17,497 nucleotides of DNA from a virus: UHGV virus genome UHGV-0117027. One strand, given 5' to 3'. Below, in pieces: positions 2,444 to 15,423 of this stretch. Under the pieces are notes generated by a model that saw only the letters and a list, made by a program, of their open reading frames with translations, ran no database searches and had not been told where the DNA came from. The translations under genes were made by a program, and so were the position numbers. Every line of letters starts with the position of its first letter. Within the stretch, counting starts at the first letter, position 1.

Positions 2444-2458
2444 ATCCGGGCTTTTTTT
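2434..2458. terminator. hairpin terminator, candidate bidirectional, between convergent genes
   Basis: GCCCGG (2435-2440), loop TAGAT, CCGGGC (2446-2451), flanked by A-run (2431-2434) and T-run (2452-2458); the chaperone stop TAG lies in the loop and the minus-strand gene ends at 2457. Confidence 0.7.
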
Positions 2459-2954
2459 AATAACCTATATAATATTCGTGGTGTTTATCTATTACTTTTT
2501 TATACATGTTAGCGCCTTCTTTGACGCACATGTTTTTGAAGTCAATTCTTACCCTATCTAATGCCATCCCGTCGGCAGCGGCATAAGCGTTATTGTCGTG
2601 ATCTTTTATCGCCCGTTCAGCAGCCATGATGGCAAGTCCAGCGACAAAGTTTTTAAATTCATTATCATTTTGTTTGTTTTCAGCAGCAGCCATCACGAAA
2701 GCGAAACTTTCACCGTGCGCTTTTATCATTTCAGCGTCACCTTTTTTGGTCCTGCTATCTTTATTTAAGATGAAATACTCCCAGTTAACGCCGTGCCTAC
2801 CAATTGAAAAAAAGTTTACATTTGCCATTGTATATGCTTTTTCGTAGGCTGGATAAATAGCGTCGCACATCTTGCTGACTTCATTACTTGCATTTGCATT
2901 GACCGCGAATATTGCCATGACCGCAGCTACCGCGACTTTTACTAGCCGTTTCAT
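2457..2954 (-). CDS. secreted protein of unknown function (N-terminal signal peptide)
   Basis: 165-aa ORF opposite to the tail genes; N-terminus MKRLVKVAVAAVMAIFAVNANA-SNE is a classic Sec signal peptide with an AxA site; SD GAGG 7 nt upstream of the ATG. Confidence 0.7.
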   Translation of the reverse strand: MKRLVKVAVAAVMAIFAVNANASNEVSKMCDAIYPAYEKAYTMANVNFFSIGRHGVNWEYFILNKDSRTKKGDAEMIKAHGESFAFVMAAAENKQNDNEFKNFVAGLAIMAAERAIKDHDNNAYAAADGMALDRVRIDFKNMCVKEGANMYKKVIDKHHEYYIGY

Positions 2955-2966
2955 AACCCGCCTCGA

Positions 2967-3056
2967 TTAATTTTTGTTTTTAAGTGCTTTTAACATTTCT
3001 TCTATGAAGTCCGCATAGCGTTCATGTTCGTTGGGACGATAGTTTACGTTTTTCAT
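2967..3056 (-). CDS. small ORF (29 aa), first gene of the leftward cassette
   Basis: ATG at 3056 preceded by AGAGGA SD with 7-nt spacer; encodes MKNVNYRPNEHERYADFIEEMLKALKNKN; stop 12 nt before the secreted-protein start. Too short for composition-based support. Confidence 0.3.
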   Translation of the reverse strand: MKNVNYRPNEHERYADFIEEMLKALKNKN

Positions 3057-3133
3057 TTTCTTATCCTCTTTTGCTTCCTCCGGTTTATCCGGTCCTTTCA
3101 AACCCCTTTGCTCTATCCCTTTCCTTTAGTCTC

Positions 3134-3162
3134 TTTATACAAAATGGAGTCGTTATAGTAAA
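3134..3162 (-). promoter_or_regulatory. candidate sigma70-type promoter for the leftward cassette
   Basis: Minus strand reads TTTACT (+ coords 3157-3162), 17-bp spacer, TATAAA (+ coords 3134-3139). By-eye match only. Confidence 0.3.
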
Positions 3163-3163
3163 G

Positions 3164-3202
3164 ACATTTTGTATAAAATAGATACACAGATCACAAAAGT
3201 GG
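3164..3202 (+). promoter_or_regulatory. conserved bipartite element upstream of the tape-measure gene
   Basis: ACATTTTGTATA (3164-3175), 8 bp, ACACAGATCACAAAA (3184-3198) then GTGGAG (SD). The same 12-mer and 15-mer recur exactly at 15342-15353 and 15367-15381. Confidence 0.5.
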
Positions 3203-3212
3203 AGTAACAATC

Positions 3213-5426
3213 ATGACAACAAATGTGGGCACGATTGAGTATACCGTTGACGCAAAAACCGAGCGGTTACTAGTAGCTCAACGCAAGGCGGAGGACTCGT
3301 TTGATAAAATCGAGCAAGGCGCTAAACGCACCGATAAATCAGTGCAGTCACTTAATACCACGATAAGTAATTTATCCAAAGCCGTGAACATTGGAATGAT
3401 GGTCATGGCTGCAAAAAAATTCCTGGAGATCGCAGATAACGTAAATCTGCTACGCGCCAGGGTAACACGACTATCAAGCGGCATTGCTGACGCAAAATCG
3501 AATTTTGACGGGATTGTTCAGATATCGAATCGCACAGGGATGAGTGTTCAAAGCACCGGGAAGCTGTGGGAAAGCCTAAAAGCCAGCCTACAGGATACCA
3601 GCGCGACCAGTCAGCAGGTATTGCAGCTTACCGACTCGCTTCAGAAAATAGGCCGTATCGGAGGTAGCTCATCAGATGAAATGTCAAACGCACTTCGCCA
3701 GTTAGGGCAGTCCCTGACGGGTGGCATTGTTCGCGCGGAAGAATACAACTCTGTGCTTGAAAACATGCCCGAAGTATGGCGACGCGTCGCCAAACAAATG
3801 GGGATCTCGATGGGTGAACTTCGCGCAAGAATGCTTGATGGTAAGCTCACCGCCGAGGATGTTACCAATTCAATTCTTGCTGGCGCAGAAGACATAGAGA
3901 AGGACTTCGCAAAACTGCCAACAACAACAGATCAGGCATTTAACGAGCTAAAAAACAACTTCGATCTGTTAATTGACACGCTAAACCAAACGCTTGGAGT
4001 GTCTGATTTGGTAGTTACTGGTATACAGGCTGTTTCTAGTGAAGTCCAGATGTTATCTGGTTGGTTTAAGTCCCTGGCGAGCGATAGCACGTCATTAACT
4101 GATAAATTGTGGCTATTGGCTGGGGCGTTTGAGGGTATAGTGCCTGGGCTTAGTTTGTTCCGCGCTCAAGCGAAACAGGTTGGATGGTTTGATGGCGGAG
4201 AACAGCCATTTGTTTCCACTCTCCCCACGGGGCAAGCTGGTGTAAGTCGCATAACGTTTAAGCCTCAACCTGGTGGTAAGGGTAAGAAAGGCAAAGGTAA
4301 AAAAACCGGCAAATCAGAAGCCGAGCGCCTTGCGGAACAGGGTGTGCGCATTTCAGATGCATATAACGAAGATTCGGCAGCAATGCGCAAAGCGCTTGAA
4401 TCACAAAAAGCCATAGATGCAGCCTTTAAAGCCGGGAAAATAACCATGCTTGAATACAAAGGCGCAATGAAGGGAATTGGTGATGAATTGCGCGAAACTC
4501 TGGCGGAAATTAACGACCCGATCAATAGGCTGCAAGAAAAATGGGACAAAATGATTCCATCACTGGATCAGAAGCGCGGTGAACTAGACCCAATACAGCA
4601 GGCGCAAAATGAATGGACCGTTCGTAAGCAAATGCTGGAAGATCTTGGCGCTACTGAGCAATATATGAGGGAACAAGAAAGAGCGCACGCACAGGAAATG
4701 CTCACCCTTGAGTGGGAGCGATATAAAGCACAGTCAATGAGCTACAAACTGTTGGGCGATACCGTTGATGCAATGGGCGGATCTGCAACAAATGCGCTTG
4801 TGGGCCTGGTTAACGGCACTCAAAGCTGGCAGCAGGCGCTGGCTAACATTGGCAATACAATCCTTTCCTCCGTTATCGGTACGCTTGTTCAAATGGGGGC
4901 TGAATGGGTCAAGCAGCAATTGATAGGCGAGGCCGCCAGCGCAGCCGCAACAGCTAAAGCATTGGCAGAGGCTACCGCTTTGGGATCTGCGTGGGCTACT
5001 CCTGCATACCTGGCAAACGTAGCCACGATGGGCGGCGCGGCGACCGTGGGGGGTACGAGTCTTGCCACTGGTGTGGCTGGAGCAAAAGCGCTTGGCCTGG
5101 CTGGCGCTCGTTATAACGGCGGTGCGGTGGCTGCGGGCAGCCTCTATAAGGTCGGCGAACACGGTAAACCGGAGATCTTTCAGGCGAGCAATGGGAGTCA
5201 GTACATGATCCCGGGTGACAACGGCAGGGTAATACCAAATCGCGACATTGGTGGTGCTGGTGGTGGTAGCGTTAGCATAAACGCGCCGATTAGTGTTTAC
5301 CCACAAAATGGATGGAGCGATGAGGATGCCAAAAAGCTGCAACAGGACATGGAAAGGATCTGCATGGGCCTGATGCACCGCGAATCATCCAGACCAGGCG
5401 GAATGCTGCAACCTCGCAGGAAATAA
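3213..5426 (+). CDS. tail tape measure protein
   Basis: 737-aa ORF after the chaperone; helical N-terminal two-thirds, a Lys/Gly-rich stretch (KPQPGGKGKKGKGKKTGK) and a Gly/Ala-rich C-terminal region; SD GGAG 9 nt upstream of the ATG. Confidence 0.9.
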   Translation: MTTNVGTIEYTVDAKTERLLVAQRKAEDSFDKIEQGAKRTDKSVQSLNTTISNLSKAVNIGMMVMAAKKFLEIADNVNLLRARVTRLSSGIADAKSNFDGIVQISNRTGMSVQSTGKLWESLKASLQDTSATSQQVLQLTDSLQKIGRIGGSSSDEMSNALRQLGQSLTGGIVRAEEYNSVLENMPEVWRRVAKQMGISMGELRARMLDGKLTAEDVTNSILAGAEDIEKDFAKLPTTTDQAFNELKNNFDLLIDTLNQTLGVSDLVVTGIQAVSSEVQMLSGWFKSLASDSTSLTDKLWLLAGAFEGIVPGLSLFRAQAKQVGWFDGGEQPFVSTLPTGQAGVSRITFKPQPGGKGKKGKGKKTGKSEAERLAEQGVRISDAYNEDSAAMRKALESQKAIDAAFKAGKITMLEYKGAMKGIGDELRETLAEINDPINRLQEKWDKMIPSLDQKRGELDPIQQAQNEWTVRKQMLEDLGATEQYMREQERAHAQEMLTLEWERYKAQSMSYKLLGDTVDAMGGSATNALVGLVNGTQSWQQALANIGNTILSSVIGTLVQMGAEWVKQQLIGEAASAAATAKALAEATALGSAWATPAYLANVATMGGAATVGGTSLATGVAGAKALGLAGARYNGGAVAAGSLYKVGEHGKPEIFQASNGSQYMIPGDNGRVIPNRDIGGAGGGSVSINAPISVYPQNGWSDEDAKKLQQDMERICMGLMHRESSRPGGMLQPRRK

Positions 5427-5432
5427 ACAAAA

Positions 5433-5460
5433 CCCCGGCACAATGCCGGGGCTATTTTAT
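5433..5460. terminator. hairpin terminator, candidate bidirectional, between convergent genes
   Basis: CCCCGGC (5433-5439), loop ACAAT, GCCGGGG (5445-5451), then TATTTTAT; on the other strand the hairpin is followed by TTTTGTTTATTT. The minus-strand 59-aa gene ends at 5457. Confidence 0.7.
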
Positions 5461-5636
5461 TCAATTTCATCATTTTTAAATTCGCCGTTTGCATAAAGCT
5501 GCAATGCTCTTATCAGTTCGTCAGCTTGCTTTTTGTCTATTACAATCATCTCGCAGTCGCTAACGATCCATAATCTTCCGTCATCTTCAATACTAAGATC
5601 AATCCTTCTGCATTCTTCAGTATCATGAATAATCAT
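5457..5636 (-). CDS. small protein (59 aa), unknown function
   Basis: ATG at 5636 with GAAGG SD 7 nt upstream; hand-translated as MIIHDTEECRRIDLSIEDDGRLWIVSDCEMIVIDKKQADELIRALQLYANGEFKNDEIE; last gene of a four-gene leftward operon. Confidence 0.5.
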   Translation of the reverse strand: MIIHDTEECRRIDLSIEDDGRLWIVSDCEMIVIDKKQADELIRALQLYANGEFKNDEIE

Positions 5637-5674
5637 TATAAACCTTCATCATGTTATTGATTTCGTGAATAAAT

Positions 5675-5845
5675 TTACTCAAATCTTGTATATCCTCTCT
5701 CAATTTTCCCTCCGTGTACACTTCTGGCAAATACCGCGTCAGTACACCTAAAAAATGGGCATGTATATGTATCCCCTTTACTATCCATATATTTTAGCAC
5801 CCATGCCATGCGTTTTACGTTGCTTTTATTTGCCGGATTTTTCAT
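5675..5845 (-). CDS. small protein (56 aa), unknown function
   Basis: Internal ATG at 5845 with GGAGG SD (8-nt spacer), preferred over the TTG start of the 64-aa track ORF; MKNPANKSNVKRMAWVLKYMDSKGDTYTCPFFRC... Confidence 0.45.
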   Translation of the reverse strand: MKNPANKSNVKRMAWVLKYMDSKGDTYTCPFFRCTDAVFARSVHGGKIERGYTRFE

Positions 5846-5876
5846 TTTGTTTTCCTCCGCAACATTCAAATCCGTG

Positions 5877-6131
5877 TCACTTGTGAGCGCCTTTCACCCC
5901 ACAGTGCCTGTTATATTCCAGGTGGTCAATAATTAACCACATCTTTAAATCTTCGCTGAATAACCGCCAATCGGGGTTGATGTCAAATTTATAACCGTAG
6001 CCATCGCGTAATTTTTTGGGGTTGGCCTCTTTTTTAAGAAAAGCATCAAGCAATTGCTTTCCTTTCTTGATGATCCGGTCCTGTGCGTTTTTCTGTGCTT
6101 TCAGGTTTTTACCAATCGCCACCAATTTCAT
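5877..6131 (-). CDS. small basic protein (84 aa); RelE/YafQ-like toxin fold is a weak by-eye candidate
   Basis: ATG at 6131 (track ORF starts at an upstream GTG). Lys-rich N-terminal half, then NPDWRLF strand, MWLIID strand and C-terminal EYNRH; recalled YafQ/RelE-type toxins share the PDW...strand...basic/His C-terminus pattern. Not verified by alignment. Confidence 0.5.
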   Translation of the reverse strand: MKLVAIGKNLKAQKNAQDRIIKKGKQLLDAFLKKEANPKKLRDGYGYKFDINPDWRLFSEDLKMWLIIDHLEYNRHCGVKGAHK

Positions 6132-6149
6132 AACACACCCCACAATCCA

Positions 6150-6305
6150 TTAGTTGACCACTTTCAGGAAGAAATCACGGTACTCGTTTTCCTTCGCATT
6201 CATCATGAATTGACCGTATTTGAATGCGTCATCAAAGCCTTTGACTATCGCCACTTCCACCTGTTCGAATGCGTTGTTCAGCATTACCACTACATAACGC
6301 TTCAT
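6150..6305 (-). CDS. small protein (51 aa), first gene of cassette
   Basis: ATG at 6305 preceded by AAAGGAGG SD (5-nt spacer); hand-translated as MKRYVVVMLNNAFEQVEVAIVKGFDDAFKYGQFMMNAKENEYRDFFLKVVN; stop 18 nt before the 84-aa gene start. Confidence 0.5.
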   Translation of the reverse strand: MKRYVVVMLNNAFEQVEVAIVKGFDDAFKYGQFMMNAKENEYRDFFLKVVN

Positions 6306-6346: not shown

Positions 6347-6375
6347 TATATACATCTTGTCACGCCTTATGTGAA
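6347..6375 (-). promoter_or_regulatory. candidate sigma70-type promoter for the four-gene leftward cassette
   Basis: Minus strand reads TTCACA (+ coords 6370-6375), 17-bp spacer, TATATA (+ coords 6347-6352), about 40 nt upstream of the first cassette start codon. Confidence 0.35.
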
Positions 6376-6390
6376 GCCATTTTGTAAACT
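6376..6390. promoter_or_regulatory. conserved intergenic element GCCATTTTGTAAACT
   Basis: 14 of 15 identical to GCCATTTTGTTAACT at 7972-7986; both sit at the head of a leftward cassette and contain the ACAAAATGG core on the minus strand. Confidence 0.45.
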
Positions 6391-6474
6391 GGTTATAATT
6401 CTTGTGATGAATTTCTCATTTTTCGCGTAGAAGCGCGTAAAGATGTATGCAATATGTAACTTATAGGGGGAATC

Positions 6475-6828
6475 ATGCCAGAAGTTTTCAGATGGACGCC
6501 GCAAAGAAGCTACAGCGTGACCAGGGAACCAAATGTGTCTGTCGTTAAACTTGGTGATGGTTATGAACAGCGCCAGGCGAAAGGGATTAACACGTTGCTT
6601 GATAGTTATACCCTGGTTTTCAAAGGCAGTAGCGCGGGATGTGGTGATGGTGGAAACGTGGCGATCCAGGCCGAAGCATTTTTGAGGGCGCGCGGCGCTG
6701 TCGAGGCGTTTTACTGGACTCCATCGATCGACGGGGTGCAAAGGCTTTTCGTTTGCCGTAGCTGGAGCATGACCAAAGACGGGCCTGTGTACACGCTAAA
6801 CGCAACGTTTGAACAAGTTGTTGGCTAA
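6475..6828 (+). CDS. M: minor tail protein M homologue (distal tail protein)
   Basis: 117 aa; N-terminal FRW...V..V.LGDGYEQR and C-terminal ...FEQVV match the lambda gpM pattern as recalled (FRW...FGDGYSQR...EFEQVV); GGGGGA SD upstream. Confidence 0.9.
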   Translation: MPEVFRWTPQRSYSVTREPNVSVVKLGDGYEQRQAKGINTLLDSYTLVFKGSSAGCGDGGNVAIQAEAFLRARGAVEAFYWTPSIDGVQRLFVCRSWSMTKDGPVYTLNATFEQVVG

Positions 6829-6840
6829 TGGGGGGTTGTT

Positions 6841-6981
6841 ATGTACGGGACTTGTGTGGTTGACAAAACTTACGCTTTTACATTGTTTGACGACTATGAG
6901 ATCAACGACCTTACTGTAAAAGCTGACAACGGCGATATATGGTATCTTCACGACGTTGGCGATGGGTACGTGGGGGTGTAG
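6841..6981 (+). CDS. small ORF (46 aa) downstream of M, unknown
   Basis: ATG 6841 preceded by GGGGGG SD (5-nt spacer), 13 nt after the M stop; MYGTCVVDKTYAFTLFDDYEINDLTVKADNGDIWYLHDVGDGYVGV; below the ORF-track length cutoff. Confidence 0.3.
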   Translation: MYGTCVVDKTYAFTLFDDYEINDLTVKADNGDIWYLHDVGDGYVGV

Positions 6982-7033
6982 ATCCCGGGAAGGGAAGGGG
7001 GTTTTATTTTTGGTTGATGGCGTATAAACACGA

Positions 7034-7061
7034 CCCCGCGCGAAGCGGGGTTATTATTATT
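7034..7061. terminator. GC hairpin with T-tract (candidate terminator, possibly bidirectional)
   Basis: CCCCGC (7034-7039), loop GCGAA, GCGGGG (7045-7050), then TTATTATTATT; the minus-strand cassette ends at 7057 inside the T-tract. Confidence 0.5.
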
Positions 7062-7173
7062 CCATTTCCATTAATGCTATATTTTCCGCTATCGTTTTCC
7101 AGTCCAGATCTACAGCATGAACGCCAAATACTATCAATCCCATTATTATTAGCGCCAAAACTTCTATTTTCAT
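7057..7173 (-). CDS. small hydrophobic peptide (38 aa), predicted single-pass membrane peptide
   Basis: ATG at 7173 with AGGTG SD (7-nt spacer); hand-translated as MKIEVLALIIMGLIVFGVHAVDLDWKTIAENIALMEME; the hydrophobic stretch LALIIMGLIVFGV would span a membrane. Confidence 0.4.
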   Translation of the reverse strand: MKIEVLALIIMGLIVFGVHAVDLDWKTIAENIALMEME

Positions 7174-7183
7174 AATCTGTCAC

Positions 7184-7432
7184 CTATAAGTTATCACGCA
7201 GATAATTAACGCCCTTATCAGTGACGAATGAATGGTTAACCTGGTTTTCATCCGTCATGATGATAAATAACTTTTCCTGTAGGTATTTAGCTTTCGGGTA
7301 CAGCGTTAAACAGACCTGGTACAGTATCCCGCGCTCAATCAGCAAATCAATAAATTCGTGTTCATGATAACCAACGAGGCGGGCGGCCTGTTTCAGCGTG
7401 TACACATAATCGCCGTGATTGCGCCGCCCCAT
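7184..7432 (-). CDS. small protein (82 aa) with helix-turn-helix-like segment, putative DNA-binding
   Basis: Start at 7432 overlaps an AGGGGG SD placed on the upstream gene stop; segment TLKQAARLVGYHEHEFIDLLIERGIL resembles an HTH. Family not identified. Confidence 0.55.
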   Translation of the reverse strand: MGRRNHGDYVYTLKQAARLVGYHEHEFIDLLIERGILYQVCLTLYPKAKYLQEKLFIIMTDENQVNHSFVTDKGVNYLRDNL

Positions 7433-7441
7433 GTATCCCCC

Positions 7442-7789
7442 TTATTTATCGAATGCTGCAAGATTATCCATGCAGAAGTCTTTCGCAGCTTTTTCGTATT
7501 CGCGTTTTGCTTCTGGATCGTCAGCCGGGAAACCTTTTGCGTGTATTTCACCAGGGCAAGACTGATCCATAGAGTCTGCAAAATTAACATTGAAGTTAAC
7601 ATTAATATCTTTCGGGTTCATATCTTCCACCTCATCAACTATCTGTACCGGATTAGCAGCATATTTCACTGGATGGCCTAAACTACATTCAAGAATCCTG
7701 CCTTCTTCCAGGGCTACTTCTTCGCTATCAAATAATCCGAAACACTCCTTGCTACCACTTAACCACACATCAAGACTGTATTTTTTCAT
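7442..7789 (-). CDS. acidic protein (115 aa), unknown function
   Basis: Internal ATG at 7789 (MKKYSLDVWLSGSKE...) with GAGG SD, preferred over the longer 149-aa track ORF whose 5' part overlaps the upstream gene in another frame. Confidence 0.55.
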   Translation of the reverse strand: MKKYSLDVWLSGSKECFGLFDSEEVALEEGRILECSLGHPVKYAANPVQIVDEVEDMNPKDINVNFNVNFADSMDQSCPGEIHAKGFPADDPEAKREYEKAAKDFCMDNLAAFDK

Positions 7790-7958
7790 TTTTGTTAGCC
7801 TCATATTTGACAGGTTCGATCTGGTATCCCAAAAGGCGGTCATCCTCAGCAAGTAAAAGCGCGTCAACCAATGCTTCCCCCTCGTCGTCATACAGGGCGA
7901 TAACCTTTTCCCTACCGTCTGTCATGAATACCGTCAACTTCCATGGCTTTTCAGTCAT
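7770..7958 (-). CDS. small acidic protein (62 aa; alternative in-frame start at 7976 gives 68 aa)
   Basis: ATG 7958 with GGAGG SD (6-nt spacer); the in-frame ATG at 7976 also has an AAGGGGAAG SD and lies inside the conserved ACAAAATGG element. Overlaps the next gene by 20 nt. Confidence 0.5.
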   Translation of the reverse strand: MTEKPWKLTVFMTDGREKVIALYDDEGEALVDALLLAEDDRLLGYQIEPVKYEANKNEKIQS

Positions 7959-7971
7959 AACGCACCTCCGC

Positions 7972-7986
7972 GCCATTTTGTTAACT
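7972..7986. promoter_or_regulatory. conserved intergenic element GCCATTTTGTTAACT
   Basis: Near-identical to 6376-6390; a related CCATTTTGG lies at 8035-8043 and an oppositely oriented ATCACAAAATG at 8064-8074. Confidence 0.45.
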
Positions 7987-8063
7987 TCCCCTTCGTTTGA
8001 GTAAAATATACATATTGTAAAAACCATGAACAATCCATTTTGGTGTGATTTAGCGTGACGCAT

Positions 8064-8074
8064 ATCACAAAATG
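8064..8074 (+). promoter_or_regulatory. ATCACAAAATG element 24 nt upstream of the L start
   Basis: Same core as ATCACAAAAGTGG (3190-3202, 23 nt before the tape-measure ATG) and ATCACAAAATGG (15373-15384, before the tail-fibre gene). Confidence 0.45.
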
Positions 8075-8087
8075 ACAAGGTGAGAAA

Positions 8088-8792
8088 ATGCGCAATATTC
8101 CGAGAGAGATGATTATTGATTCCGTCGATGCCGGAGTTGGCGCGGTCATTGACTTATTTGAACTGGACCTTACTCCCCTGGGAGGCGAGGTTATCCGCTT
8201 CCATTCCGGCGCGAACGGCTATTACGGCCAGGTTATCTGGAAGGGAGTAGCTTACAACAGCTACCCGATCGAGACGACGGGCTTCGAAATGAAAAACGAG
8301 GGCGTTTATTCGCGGCCTCAAATGGTTGTAGCCAATATCGGCGGGCTAATCACAGGGATGAATAACGATTTCAACGACCTGCGAGGAATGAAGGTTACGC
8401 GCCGCCAGGTGGAGGTTAAATACCTGGACGCCGTTAACTTCCCTAACGGCAATCCAGACGCAGATCCATCTATTGAGGCTGTATCTTTTTACGTCGTTGA
8501 AGCAATGAGCGAAGAAACAGCGGATCAGGTGCAATATGAATTGTCAACGCCAATTGATGCAGATAAAGCCGTTATCCCAGGGCGCACCATCCTTGCTGAC
8601 GTTTGTCAGTGGCAATACAGAGGCGACGGGTGCATGTATTCTGGCGGCCCGGTCGCAACTGATAAAGATACACCAACAAGTGACCCAACGTTAGACAAAT
8701 GCAGCCACCGCCTTAGCGGTTGCCGTTTGCGTTTTCCGCGTCCGGCAGCACTGCCGATCTCCTGTTTTCCTGGTTCCAGCAAGGTAGGTTAA
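8088..8792 (+). CDS. L: minor tail protein L homologue
   Basis: 234 aa; segments ...RRQVEVKYLDAVNFPNGNPDADP..., ...PGRTILADVCQWQYRGDGCMYSGGPVATD...DKCS..LSGC closely parallel lambda gpL as recalled, including four C-terminal cysteines (lambda L binds an Fe-S cluster). Confidence 0.9.
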   Translation: MRNIPREMIIDSVDAGVGAVIDLFELDLTPLGGEVIRFHSGANGYYGQVIWKGVAYNSYPIETTGFEMKNEGVYSRPQMVVANIGGLITGMNNDFNDLRGMKVTRRQVEVKYLDAVNFPNGNPDADPSIEAVSFYVVEAMSEETADQVQYELSTPIDADKAVIPGRTILADVCQWQYRGDGCMYSGGPVATDKDTPTSDPTLDKCSHRLSGCRLRFPRPAALPISCFPGSSKVG

Positions 8793-14428: not shown

Positions 14429-15028
14429 ATGGCTACTTTCGGCGCTTATTTACGTTTAAGTAATGGCAATATTTTCGTAACTCCAGATTCGACACCTATG
14501 TGCCTTTATTCACGGGTTGCTCTCAATTCAAGCCAACAGCAAACAATAGCCGTCCCCAATGGGAAGCCTGTAATGGTATTCATAAAAAACACAGACGATA
14601 CCGCTACTGGTGTAGCCTATCGCAATTCATCGTCTACCATAGTGATTCCACCAGGAAACGGTTACGCGTATATATTCAGTATCTTCCCGCAATCGCGTCC
14701 GAAGTGGGGTATGGCTATATGGAACGCTTCCGGTGAACTGGTATTGACAAACGAATCAAGAATATTGACAGACATTGTTACGGTGGGGACAGCCGGATCA
14801 AGTGGTGGAATTTATATCGACCAGACATTATCAGGATCTTATGCGGTAGTGCCTCAGATATTAGGGGCCGTTGTAGGTATGGGTTCTGCGACAATATATA
14901 CAGAGGCATACTACAACGGCAGCACTACACGAATTCGCGGGAAGATGGTTGGTAGCTTGCAACAGATTTACGGTTACATTAATCACGGGAACGCTATCAC
15001 CGCCATTAAAACCGACGCCTATGATTAA
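14429..15028 (+). CDS. beta-rich protein (199 aa), paralogue-like partner of the upstream gene, unknown function
   Basis: Translationally coupled to the upstream gene; N-terminus MATFGAYLRLSNGN...; Ser/Thr/Gly/Asn-rich like fibre or adhesin domains. Confidence 0.6.
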   Translation: MATFGAYLRLSNGNIFVTPDSTPMCLYSRVALNSSQQQTIAVPNGKPVMVFIKNTDDTATGVAYRNSSSTIVIPPGNGYAYIFSIFPQSRPKWGMAIWNASGELVLTNESRILTDIVTVGTAGSSGGIYIDQTLSGSYAVVPQILGAVVGMGSATIYTEAYYNGSTTRIRGKMVGSLQQIYGYINHGNAITAIKTDAYD

Positions 15029-15264
15029 TTCAGTTCCGGGCAATCCGTTTTCTTGAAGTGGTCAACGCTTACCCATTGGAAGTTAAACGGATACCCGGCC
15101 TTAACCATTTTATGACCGCCAACATCCGCGACACCGAAGACTGCAACCGCATATTCATTACCGCCAGCCTGATAAATTGCCGTGCATTCACGTTTCGGCA
15201 TATCAGCACAACCAACCATACCAGCGACCATTGCAGCTATAGCGATATTTTTAAAGCCTTTCAT
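15025..15264 (-). CDS. small lipoprotein (79-aa precursor), candidate Cor/Llp-type superinfection exclusion protein
   Basis: ATG at 15264 with GGAGGA SD (7-nt spacer), preferred over the far-upstream track start at 15408; MKGFKNIAIAAMVAGMVG-C: signal peptide plus lipobox-like Cys, mature part about 60 aa with two more Cys. Divergent from the tail-fibre gene. Confidence 0.6.
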   Translation of the reverse strand: MKGFKNIAIAAMVAGMVGCADMPKRECTAIYQAGGNEYAVAVFGVADVGGHKMVKAGYPFNFQWVSVDHFKKTDCPELN

Positions 15265-15341
15265 TGTCTTATCCTCCATTGTTCCGTCGGTTGTAGTATC
15301 CATAAACATCGTTTTCTCAACATTGATATAAATCAATAAAT

Positions 15342-15384
15342 ACATTTTGTATAGGTCAGGAATGTAACACAGATCACAAAATGG
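15342..15384 (+). promoter_or_regulatory. conserved bipartite element upstream of the tail-fibre gene
   Basis: ACATTTTGTATA (15342-15353), 13 bp, ACACAGATCACAAAA (15367-15381) then TGG; exact copies of the two blocks at 3164-3175 and 3184-3198. Confidence 0.5.
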
Positions 15385-15423
15385 TAAAATTACCAGGTTA
15401 ATTAACATAATGGAGTCATTGCG

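Follow-up and report, generated by a model that had tools for sequence, protein, structure and literature searches.

The stretch of DNA analyzed here, UHGV virus genome UHGV-0117027, comprises 17,497 nucleotides and is referred to below as the window. Between its tail genes M (6475–6828) and L (8088–8792), the window carries four minus-strand genes that constitute a genuine, self-contained leftward operon. We call these genes gA (7770–7958; 62 amino acids), gB (7442–7789; 115 amino acids), gC (7184–7432; 82 amino acids), and gD (7057–7173; 38 amino acids). gA and gB overlap by 20 nt, and the gaps that separate gB from gC and gC from gD are 9 and 10 nt long, respectively, with a Shine–Dalgarno sequence at each of these two junctions. 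Directly after gD lies a bidirectional intrinsic terminator at 7032–7052 (GACCCCGCGCGAAGCGGGGTT), a G+C-rich hairpin with T-runs on both strands, which ends both the leftward operon and the rightward transcript of M and the small gene M-orf46 that follows it. The stem of this hairpin is kept in related phages, and the loop varies. Because a conserved promoter-like region lies on the L side and the bidirectional terminator on the M side, the operon seems to be insulated from the surrounding rightward late operon. The G+C content is 0.42–0.44 over positions 7001–8000, compared with 0.51 in the flanking segments 6501–7000 and 8251–8750.

An earlier, sequence-only reading of the locus had listed minus-strand open reading frames (ORFs) of 62 or 68, 115, 82, and 38 codons and had proposed an operon that encodes two acidic proteins, a DNA-binding-like protein, and a single-pass membrane peptide. 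The ORFs are located as that reading had it, the operon is borne out by the overlap, the 9–10-nt junctions, and its own bidirectional terminator, and the description of the products holds. The minus-strand block had been put at 1.2 kb; the genes do lie between M and L, but the coding block measures about 0.9 kb, since positions 6841–6981 of the 1,259-bp M–L gap hold a plus-strand gene. As to the start of gA, an upstream ATG at 7976 would give a 68-residue alternative product. The 62-residue start has a Shine–Dalgarno sequence (GGAGGTG, 7963–7969) and is also the one annotated by the Prokaryotic Genome Annotation Pipeline (PGAP), and the upstream ATG is absent or out of frame in several relatives, so we take the 62-residue start to be the real one. 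gD was left unannotated by PGAP, and a gD homologue is annotated in the GenBank record of phage mEp515.

The window represents the tail module of the mEpimmI phages. Its region 6400–8200 is 84–89% identical to seven deposited phages, namely mEp013, mEp554, mEp515, mEp010, mEp044, MagusPhagus, and mEp021, and the same gene layout is annotated in the mEp515 and mEp021 records, with K, I, and J lying rightward of L. The mEpimmI (mEp021-type) family comprises temperate siphophages from human faeces that are Nus-dependent and non-lambdoid; most of them are not inducible by ultraviolet (UV) light (PMC11893012). In one collection of Escherichia coli phages from the human gut, mEpimmI prophages were reportedly as common as lambdoid phages. 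The segment 6830–8090, which contains the operon, is 100% identical to a chromosomal prophage of E. coli strain M15 and was matched in 35 of 5,426 complete E. coli genomes, every match being chromosomal.

To describe the conservation of the operon, we compared 48 related loci, 44 of which came from IMG/VR and were fetched via gC and four of which came from GenBank/RefSeq. gA, gB, and gC are present in all 48, in one order and orientation, between L and M. Identity to the window protein ranges from 89 to 100% for gC, from 84 to 100% for M and L, from 56 to 100% for gB, and from 43 to 100% for gA, and the gA and gB alleles reassort independently of each other among the relatives. Ratios of nonsynonymous to synonymous substitution rates (dN/dS), calculated by the pooled Nei–Gojobori method from 24–41 distinct sequences per gene, are 0.27 for gA, 0.23 for gB, 0.11 for gC, and 0.15 for gD, compared with 0.08 for M and 0.05 for L. 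These values of 0.11–0.27 indicate that all four genes are real and under purifying selection. The sequence-only reading had named two findings that would speak against it, namely that the frames are not conserved in relatives and that the products have tail-assembly homologues. All four frames turned out to be conserved; no tail-assembly homologues were found, and the products are not tail-assembly proteins. The variable domains of gA and gB evolve four to six times faster than the neighboring genes.

The gA–gB–gC set is a fixed core feature of the mEpimmI family and not the variable cargo for which it had first been taken. A KilAC-like antirepressor has likewise been counted as a core gene of the family by manual analysis (PMC11893012). 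What varies across relatives is the presence of extra genes inserted at gB/gC or gC/gD, among them remnants of an HNH/AP2 homing endonuclease, and the identity of the last small gene. HNH and also AP2-like homing-endonuclease genes or remnants are scattered over the tail regions of the relatives, and the window is free of them. They occupy the gB/gC junction, the first leftward cassette (see later), and the I/J junction (L047, around 3530–4000; L001, 2984–3490 and 7634–8200; L002, 7887–8453) and look like free-standing homing endonucleases that exploit these intergenic junctions. Among species-representative genomes, no relative of gB or gC was found, and the module appears to be confined to E. 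coli prophages and gut viromes.

The sequence-only reading had stated that none of the proteins matches a family that can be named. This is correct for gA, gB, and gD, which gave nothing significant in searches of Pfam, NCBIfam, and PADLOC, but not for gC, which matches the Pfam family PF03374 (KilAC/ANT) above threshold (E = 1.3e-6; 29.1 bits against a gathering cut-off of 25.3). The match covers profile positions 23–105 of 108 and gC residues 10–82. gC, which is neutral in charge, also matches phrog_5689; PGAP names it a KilAC protein, and so does the mEp021 record, where it is gp71, a putative antirepressor. PF03374 is precomputed on six of seven gC homologue clusters, and the homologues within the family are all 82 amino acids long. 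Outside the family, the nearest sequences share 30–38% identity with gC and correspond to the C-terminal regions of larger Rha/Ant antirepressors encoded by Vibrio, Cronobacter, Hafnia, and Stx phages. gC itself has no N-terminal AntA/B, Bro-N, Rha, or KilA-N domain and is therefore not a classical two-domain antirepressor. A search by sequence for a solved KilAC structure found none.

Three KilAC domains that stand alone, or that have been isolated from larger proteins, have been assayed for activity. When tested by itself, the C-terminal domain of Staphylococcus aureus Phi11 Gp07 slows growth of E. coli and makes the cells filament (PMC5944126). CreP, a 103-residue stand-alone KilAC protein that serves as the toxin of a repressed toxin module, is bacteriostatic in E. 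coli, causes filamentation, and co-precipitates FtsZ weakly (bioRxiv 10.1101/2024.01.05.574328). In Listeria AriS, the KilAC domain is by itself sufficient to block the SOS response, probably by acting at RecA, and phage-specific regulation maps to the N-terminal domain (PMC9043618). Two motifs, AKxLxL and TxKG, have been noted for CreP and P1 KilA (bioRxiv 10.1101/2024.01.05.574328). Reading gC by eye, we find TDKG at residues 71–74 as its TxKG motif and, for AKxLxL, only an approximate AARLVG at residues 16–21.

gC is set beside CreP by domain family, size, and motif. Both are single-domain KilAC proteins of about 80–100 residues that lack an N-terminal DNA-binding domain, and gC has the TxKG motif that is highlighted in the CreP preprint. 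The settings differ, however: CreP (Acinetobacter baylyi ADP1) is encoded within a CRISPR-Cas locus, where a CRISPR-like RNA represses it, whereas gC belongs to a prophage tail module in which two acidic proteins precede it and a membrane peptide follows. With AriS, Phi11 Gp07, and P1 KilA/Ant, gC has PF03374 in common, and in AriS and Gp07 the isolated C-terminal domain is the host-directed part, responsible for SOS block or filamentation (PMC9043618, PMC5944126). These proteins carry an AntA/B, Bro-N, Rha, or KilA-N domain in addition and are encoded in early or immunity regions, whereas gC consists of the KilAC domain alone and is encoded in the late region, on the opposite strand.

The gA and gB proteins are both acidic, with an isoelectric point (pI) of 4.4 and net charges of −6 and −12, respectively, and correspond to phrog_29559 (gA) and phrog_38567 (gB), neither of which has an assigned function. 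We dismissed a weak Big_3_4 match of gA, which scored 17 bits where the cut-off is 27. AlphaFold2 predicts a β-β-α-β fold for gA (mean predicted local distance difference test score [pLDDT] of 81), with strands at residues 6–12, 17–23, and 42–49 and a helix at 26–37. For gB, the model has the same β-β-α-β arrangement in residues 1–50 (pLDDT about 90), followed by a low-confidence linker (residues 55–88) and a C-terminal helix. When the two families were compared by hhalign, gA and the N-domain of gB scored 22.6 over 44–47 columns, compared with 9.1 ± 2.0 in a column-shuffle control in which none of 300 shuffles reached 22.6. Because the score is far above the shuffles and the predicted topology is the same, we regard gA and the gB N-domain as paralogues.

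A fold search of BFVD with gA and the gB N-domain returned overlapping sets of uncharacterized phage proteins of about 55 residues, some of which are labeled DUF7336. The likeness lies in size (about 50–60 residues), in the β-β-α-β topology, and in target template modeling (TM) scores of 0.65–0.80; on the other hand, Foldseek E-values were only about 0.02–0.1, the DUF7336 family has no assigned function, and no Pfam match to DUF7336 was obtained, either for gB (E up to 1) or for gA and 15 homologues (E up to 10). Word-indexed and exhaustive profile searches found homologues of gA and gB in E. coli prophages and viromes only, apart from a few cases in which the gB C-terminal module (C-module) stands alone. 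A gB profile search of 1.84 billion representative proteins likewise returned only family members, fragments, a few stand-alone C-modules, and repetitive long proteins. Several gA homologues are named “transporter” by NCBI (P0060–P0062, P0066, and P0070; L004, 1471–1626). This looks like a propagated annotation error, since the proteins are 51–67 residues long, soluble, and acidic and have no hydrophobic segment.

Three stretches of gB evolve at very different rates. Values of dN are 0.335 for the N-domain (residues 1–50), 0.169 for the linker (51–72), and 0.047 for the C-module (73–115), whose consensus is ADSMDQSCPGEIHAKGFPADDPEAKREYEKAAKDFC.DNL..FDK; the last 45 residues of the protein are nearly invariant. 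Within gB, at 7619–7633 on the minus strand, there is a possible internal start, which consists of GAGGTGG (7627–7633), 5 nt, and an in-frame ATG (7619–7621) that encodes Met57. The sequence RAGGTGGAA-NNN-ATG is kept, synonymous sites included, in 33 of 39 distinct sequences, and at least 90% of sequences keep Met57. Stand-alone homologues of 56 residues from unrelated phages (P0079 and P0080) begin at the Met that is equivalent to Met57. These three features make an internal start plausible, and its use would yield a 59-residue isoform made up of the C-module. The stand-alone C-module homologues occur in two unrelated phage contexts, neither of which has a KilAC neighbor.

The last gene, gD, encodes a single-pass hydrophobic peptide with an acidic tail. 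Its N-terminal hydrophobic helix is conserved, with a dN/dS of 0.09 in the transmembrane part, and its C-terminus comes in two variants that give products of 38 or of 45–49 residues. gD, the first type of such peptide, is found in 35 of 49 entries. In the entries without gD, its place is taken by an unrelated hydrophobic ORF of 24 codons (MCEHYVLEMIIIIIGL...; full sequence MCEHYVLEMIIIIIGLLCILLSTL), which is coupled to the gC stop codon and lies 3′ of gC in loci L035–L048 (in L039, at about 4247–4330). Ten entries have an additional hydrophobic ORF of 23–26 codons (..VIENVLVVAGAI.. or ..VIENVLVVAGAIAIVYAFLN), for example between gC and gD in L009 and L029. These 23–26- and 24-codon ORFs are below the size reach of standard gene callers. 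A mini hydrophobic ORF follows gC, directly or after one inserted gene, in 49 of 49 entries, and these ORFs fall into three mutually unrelated types. Judged from these sequences, a mini membrane peptide after gC is maintained by nonhomologous replacement.

The 130-bp intergenic region between L and gA is nearly invariant in 36 distinct family sequences and is more conserved than gA or gB. Reading this sequence, we predict a leftward sigma-70 promoter at 8005–8043, with an A-rich box (CCAAAATGG, 8035–8043), a −35 hexamer TTGTTC (8028–8033; TTGATC in most relatives), and, after a 17-nt spacer, a −10 hexamer TATATT (8005–8010), all on the minus strand; transcription would start near 7998. The promoter was not listed by our promoter scan because its score, 8 of 12 consensus matches, falls under the cut-off of 9 of 12. 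Upstream of it, at 8054–8069 on the minus strand, lies a box (TGTGATATGCGTCACG) that matches the core TGTGA-N6-TCACA of the cAMP receptor protein (CRP) site at 9 of 10 positions and that is the sole exact TGTGA-N6-TCAC in the window. The lac site matches the CRP core at the same level, 9 of 10. In the 36 family sequences, the half-sites of the box are invariant and the spacer is variable, a pattern that would be expected of the site of a dimeric regulator. Candidate binders, as far as the motif can tell, include CRP, a phage regulator, and gC itself.

Three further features of this region were considered. A rightward promoter-like site (TTGTTA, 18 nt, TAAAAT) at 7978–8007 overlaps the leftward −10, and positions 7978–8010 may thus act as a symmetric bidirectional promoter that could restart transcription of L-K-I-J as well. 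Only a half-site-like TGTATAT resembles a LexA box in the operon promoter, and SOS control was therefore rejected. Box A was also rejected as a −35 element for a −10 within box B, the spacing varying between 19, 22, and 24 nt. An Rfam search of the window found no RNA family.

The operon is one of four leftward units in the window. The others are 2457–3101, a first cassette at 5457–6305, and the lipoprotein gene (Lpp) at 15025–15264, and common motifs occur, always on the minus strand, in the upstream regions 3159–3198, 6372–6418, 8005–8069 (the present operon), and 15337–15381. One of these motifs, TTTTGTGAT or TGTGA-N6-TCAC(A), is the CRP-like box. In 17.5 kb, there are only three CRP-core sites that match at 9 or more of 10 positions, compared with about 0.5 expected, and every one lies upstream of a leftward unit: besides the site at 8054–8069, these are 6403–6418 before the first cassette and 15363–15378 before the lipoprotein gene, both on the minus strand. 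A second motif, the ACAAAATG box, is found upstream of all four units. This 8-mer occurs 12 times in the window, compared with 1.4 expected, and none of 200 shuffles reached 12; some of the copies are start-codon contexts. The arrangement of a −35, 17 nt, and TGTATAxx is present in three of the four units. In mEp021, the same boxes occur upstream of gp63 and of the lipoprotein gene gp81, and the lipoprotein unit of the window is equivalent in position to that of mEp021. Since the same upstream motifs are common to all four units, their co-regulation is probable.

Intrinsic terminators end each of the three units that were searched for one, namely the unit 2457–3101 (2425–2456), the first cassette (5431–5453), and the present operon (7032–7052), and those at 5431–5453 and 7032–7052 were scored as bidirectional. 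As mEp021 carries a putative Q-type late regulator, late transcription could read through these terminators.

Some observations on the neighboring units may be added. The first cassette lies between the tape measure protein gene (3213–5426) and M, on the minus strand, and has its own conserved upstream region. PGAP annotates in it genes for 59 (5457–5636), 84 (5877–6131), and 51 amino acids (6150–6305), and an extra ORF of 64 codons (5675–5869) appears in the mechanical ORF list only. The 51-residue gene was considered as a third gA/gB paralogue and rejected, as no similarity to either was detected. The corresponding site in mEp515 additionally holds an HNH endonuclease gene. The minus-strand gene at 15025–15264 encodes a 79-residue lipoprotein with the lipobox MKGFKNIAIAAMVAGMVGC... 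and is the local member of the Lpp superinfection-exclusion group; its start is more likely 15264 than the ATG at 15408 given in the ORF list, because the latter would enclose the conserved upstream boxes. Lpp proteins of mEpimmI phages exclude superinfecting phages in experiments (PMC11893012). The plus-strand gene at 6841–6981 (M-orf46; phrog_3249), directly 3′ of M, encodes a conserved acidic protein of 46 residues with a dN/dS of 0.12; it is kept in all relatives, and its rightward transcript ends at the bidirectional terminator 7032–7052.

The functional assignment of the operon is entirely inferential. The reading that we tentatively prefer, to which we give somewhat less than an even chance, is that of a host-directed operon, independent of the late operon, that influences cell division or the SOS response through its KilAC protein. 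Host sigma-70 RNA polymerase would transcribe the operon without the need for late transcription, probably in lysogens or at an early stage of infection. Of these settings, the lysogen is the most plausible, because the exclusion provided by Lpp, a unit with the same upstream motifs, is useful only there. The shared TGTGA-N6-TCAC box suggests activation by cAMP-CRP, with a phage regulator as the alternative. The products would target the host cell rather than the virion; in the mEp021 record, proteins detected by mass spectrometry are labeled “virion structural protein,” and gp71–gp74 are without this label. By analogy with the three isolated KilAC domains, gC is the likely effector, which would bind a host protein and slow division, dampen the SOS response, or both. 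gA and gB, duplicates of one small acidic domain, may be modulators or adaptors with one fixed and one variable partner, an idea that derives from the fast evolution of the variable domains and the nearly frozen C-module of gB. The mini inner-membrane peptide, which is gD in the window, probably cooperates with gC at the membrane. The rarity of UV induction among mEpimmI phages is compatible with SOS damping by the operon but is not evidence for it. A role in lysogenic conversion or exclusion, as suggested in the sequence-only reading, is plausible, but only by analogy.

A number of points weigh against this preferred reading. The KilAC activities tested so far were all observed under overexpression, and they differ among themselves, the outcome being a division block in some cases and an SOS block in another. 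The tested domains are tied to gC by family, and the closest larger antirepressors in the phage collection share no more than the 30–38% identity given above. A dedicated gB–gC partnership is unsupported, since stand-alone C-modules have no KilAC neighbor, and gD may be dispensable, since its start codon is ATA in about seven relatives. As for expression, the promoter hexamers TTGTTC and TATATT are only moderate, and the conservation between L and gA could instead reflect a role in rightward late transcription or in initiating translation of L. The center of the CRP-like box is at −63.5 relative to the start set by the predicted −10, or at −62.5 in relatives with a 1-nt deletion, which is not exactly a canonical class I position; class I CRP sites are centered near −61.5, −71.5, and so on. 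Finally, the fourth leftward unit (2457–3101) has one good half-site only, the left TTTTGTGATCTGTGT.

A bolder version of the preferred reading would make the four units one host-controlled regulon, run by cAMP-CRP through the TGTGA-N6-TCAC box. The prophage would in this way link to host nutrition both superinfection exclusion and a new division- or SOS-modulating device, composed of the stand-alone KilAC protein, the obligatory mini membrane peptide, and the two duplicated acidic adaptors. We consider this improbable. If true, the regulon might explain why UV induction is rare in mEpimmI phages.

The strongest competitor, which is nonetheless unlikely, is that the operon is an anti-defence or counter-defence cassette in which gA and gB are early-expressed acidic inhibitors of the defences of the host or of rival prophages, with variable domains that track their targets. 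The proteins are indeed small, acidic, and fast-evolving when their identities (43–100% and 56–100%) are set against those of M and L (84–100%), their alleles reassort independently, and their fold resembles that of many uncharacterized small phage proteins. The sequence-only reading had also raised this possibility, together with that of DNA mimicry. We found no positive evidence for it: none of the four proteins matched a PADLOC defence model at E up to 1, and for gA and gB no known family of inhibitors, whether anti-restriction, anti-CRISPR, or other, was matched by sequence or convincingly by fold. The two proteins do not qualify as members of the DNA-mimic anti-restriction families (Ocr, ArdA), and their predicted small β-β-α-β fold does not suggest a DNA-mimic architecture. 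The dN/dS values of 0.22–0.27 are far under 1 and give no sign of positive selection at this resolution. An orientation against the late operon and motifs shared with Lpp suit expression from the prophage better than early lytic expression, and a role in anti-defence would leave both the KilAC protein and the obligatory membrane peptide unexplained.

It is less probable still that the operon is a toxin–antidote module of the addiction or abortive-infection type, with gC as a bacteriostatic KilAC toxin that is restrained by gB, gA, or both. A precedent is CreP, the toxin of a repressed module, which is toxic to E. coli. gB immediately precedes gC and the two are translationally close, and both gC and the gB C-module are near-invariant; the predicted layout of gB, in which a folded N-domain is joined by a disordered linker to a conserved C-terminal helix, would resemble that of a type II antitoxin. 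Against this, the searches of Pfam, NCBIfam, and PADLOC yielded no toxin or antitoxin family, and the gB C-modules that stand alone in other phages do so without a KilAC protein beside them.

The label of putative antirepressor that gp71 bears in the mEp021 record corresponds to a third alternative, in which gC, once its promoter fires (through cAMP-CRP, for example), would bind the CI-like Rep repressor and trigger prophage induction by an SOS-independent route. KilAC domains are present in classical antirepressors (P1 Ant, Rha/Ant), and such a route would suit phages most of which are not UV-inducible (PMC11893012). In AriS, however, the KilAC domain acts on the host SOS response and the phage-specific part is N-terminal (PMC9043618), and gC has no N-terminal domain. 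Moreover, the operon promoter has no LexA box, and the same promoter design is found at Lpp, which needs to be on in stable lysogens and is thus hard to square with an induction trigger. We therefore regard a true antirepressor as very unlikely. That the genes encode tail-assembly accessory proteins, or are nonfunctional filler between M and L, has next to no probability, the sole support being the location within the tail module; the genes have the opposite strand, their own terminator, and a conserved promoter-like region, their products match no tail chaperone family and bear no virion label in the mEp021 record, and purifying selection rules out filler.

Among known genetic elements, the operon invites comparison with morons, which are autonomous promoter–gene–terminator units embedded in late operons; examples are lambda lom and bor, HK97 gene 15, and the exclusion lipoproteins Lpp/Cor/Llp. 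Like these, it is independently terminated, lies among structural genes, has a G+C content below that of its neighbors, and shares motifs with Lpp. The promoter that a moron would need is predicted for the operon (TTGATC/TTGTTC-17-TATATT) but falls under the scan cut-off. It differs in comprising four genes rather than one. Morons are, furthermore, defined by presence in some relatives and absence in others, and since gA–gB–gC is fixed in all 48 relatives, the operon behaves as a core module rather than as a moron.

Part of this was already known: the genes have been deposited as encoding hypothetical and KilAC-domain proteins, the phage family has been published, and tail modules that carry leftward accessory units are familiar. 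New here are the status of the operon as a core element, the duplication that links gA and gB, the split rates and the possible internal start of gB, the obligatory mini membrane peptide, the common upstream motifs with a CRP-like box, and the functional lead from the KilAC literature. Clean targets for work on small proteins are the constant mini peptide and the gA/gB family, which occurs only in this phage group. The CRP-like box at all four units provides a concrete hypothesis for how accessory genes of a prophage could be coupled to host physiology. If gC acts like other isolated KilAC domains, mEpimmI prophages carry a built-in brake on division or on the SOS response, and this would have consequences for prophage induction, for tolerance to antibiotics that trigger the SOS response, and for competition with co-resident prophages.

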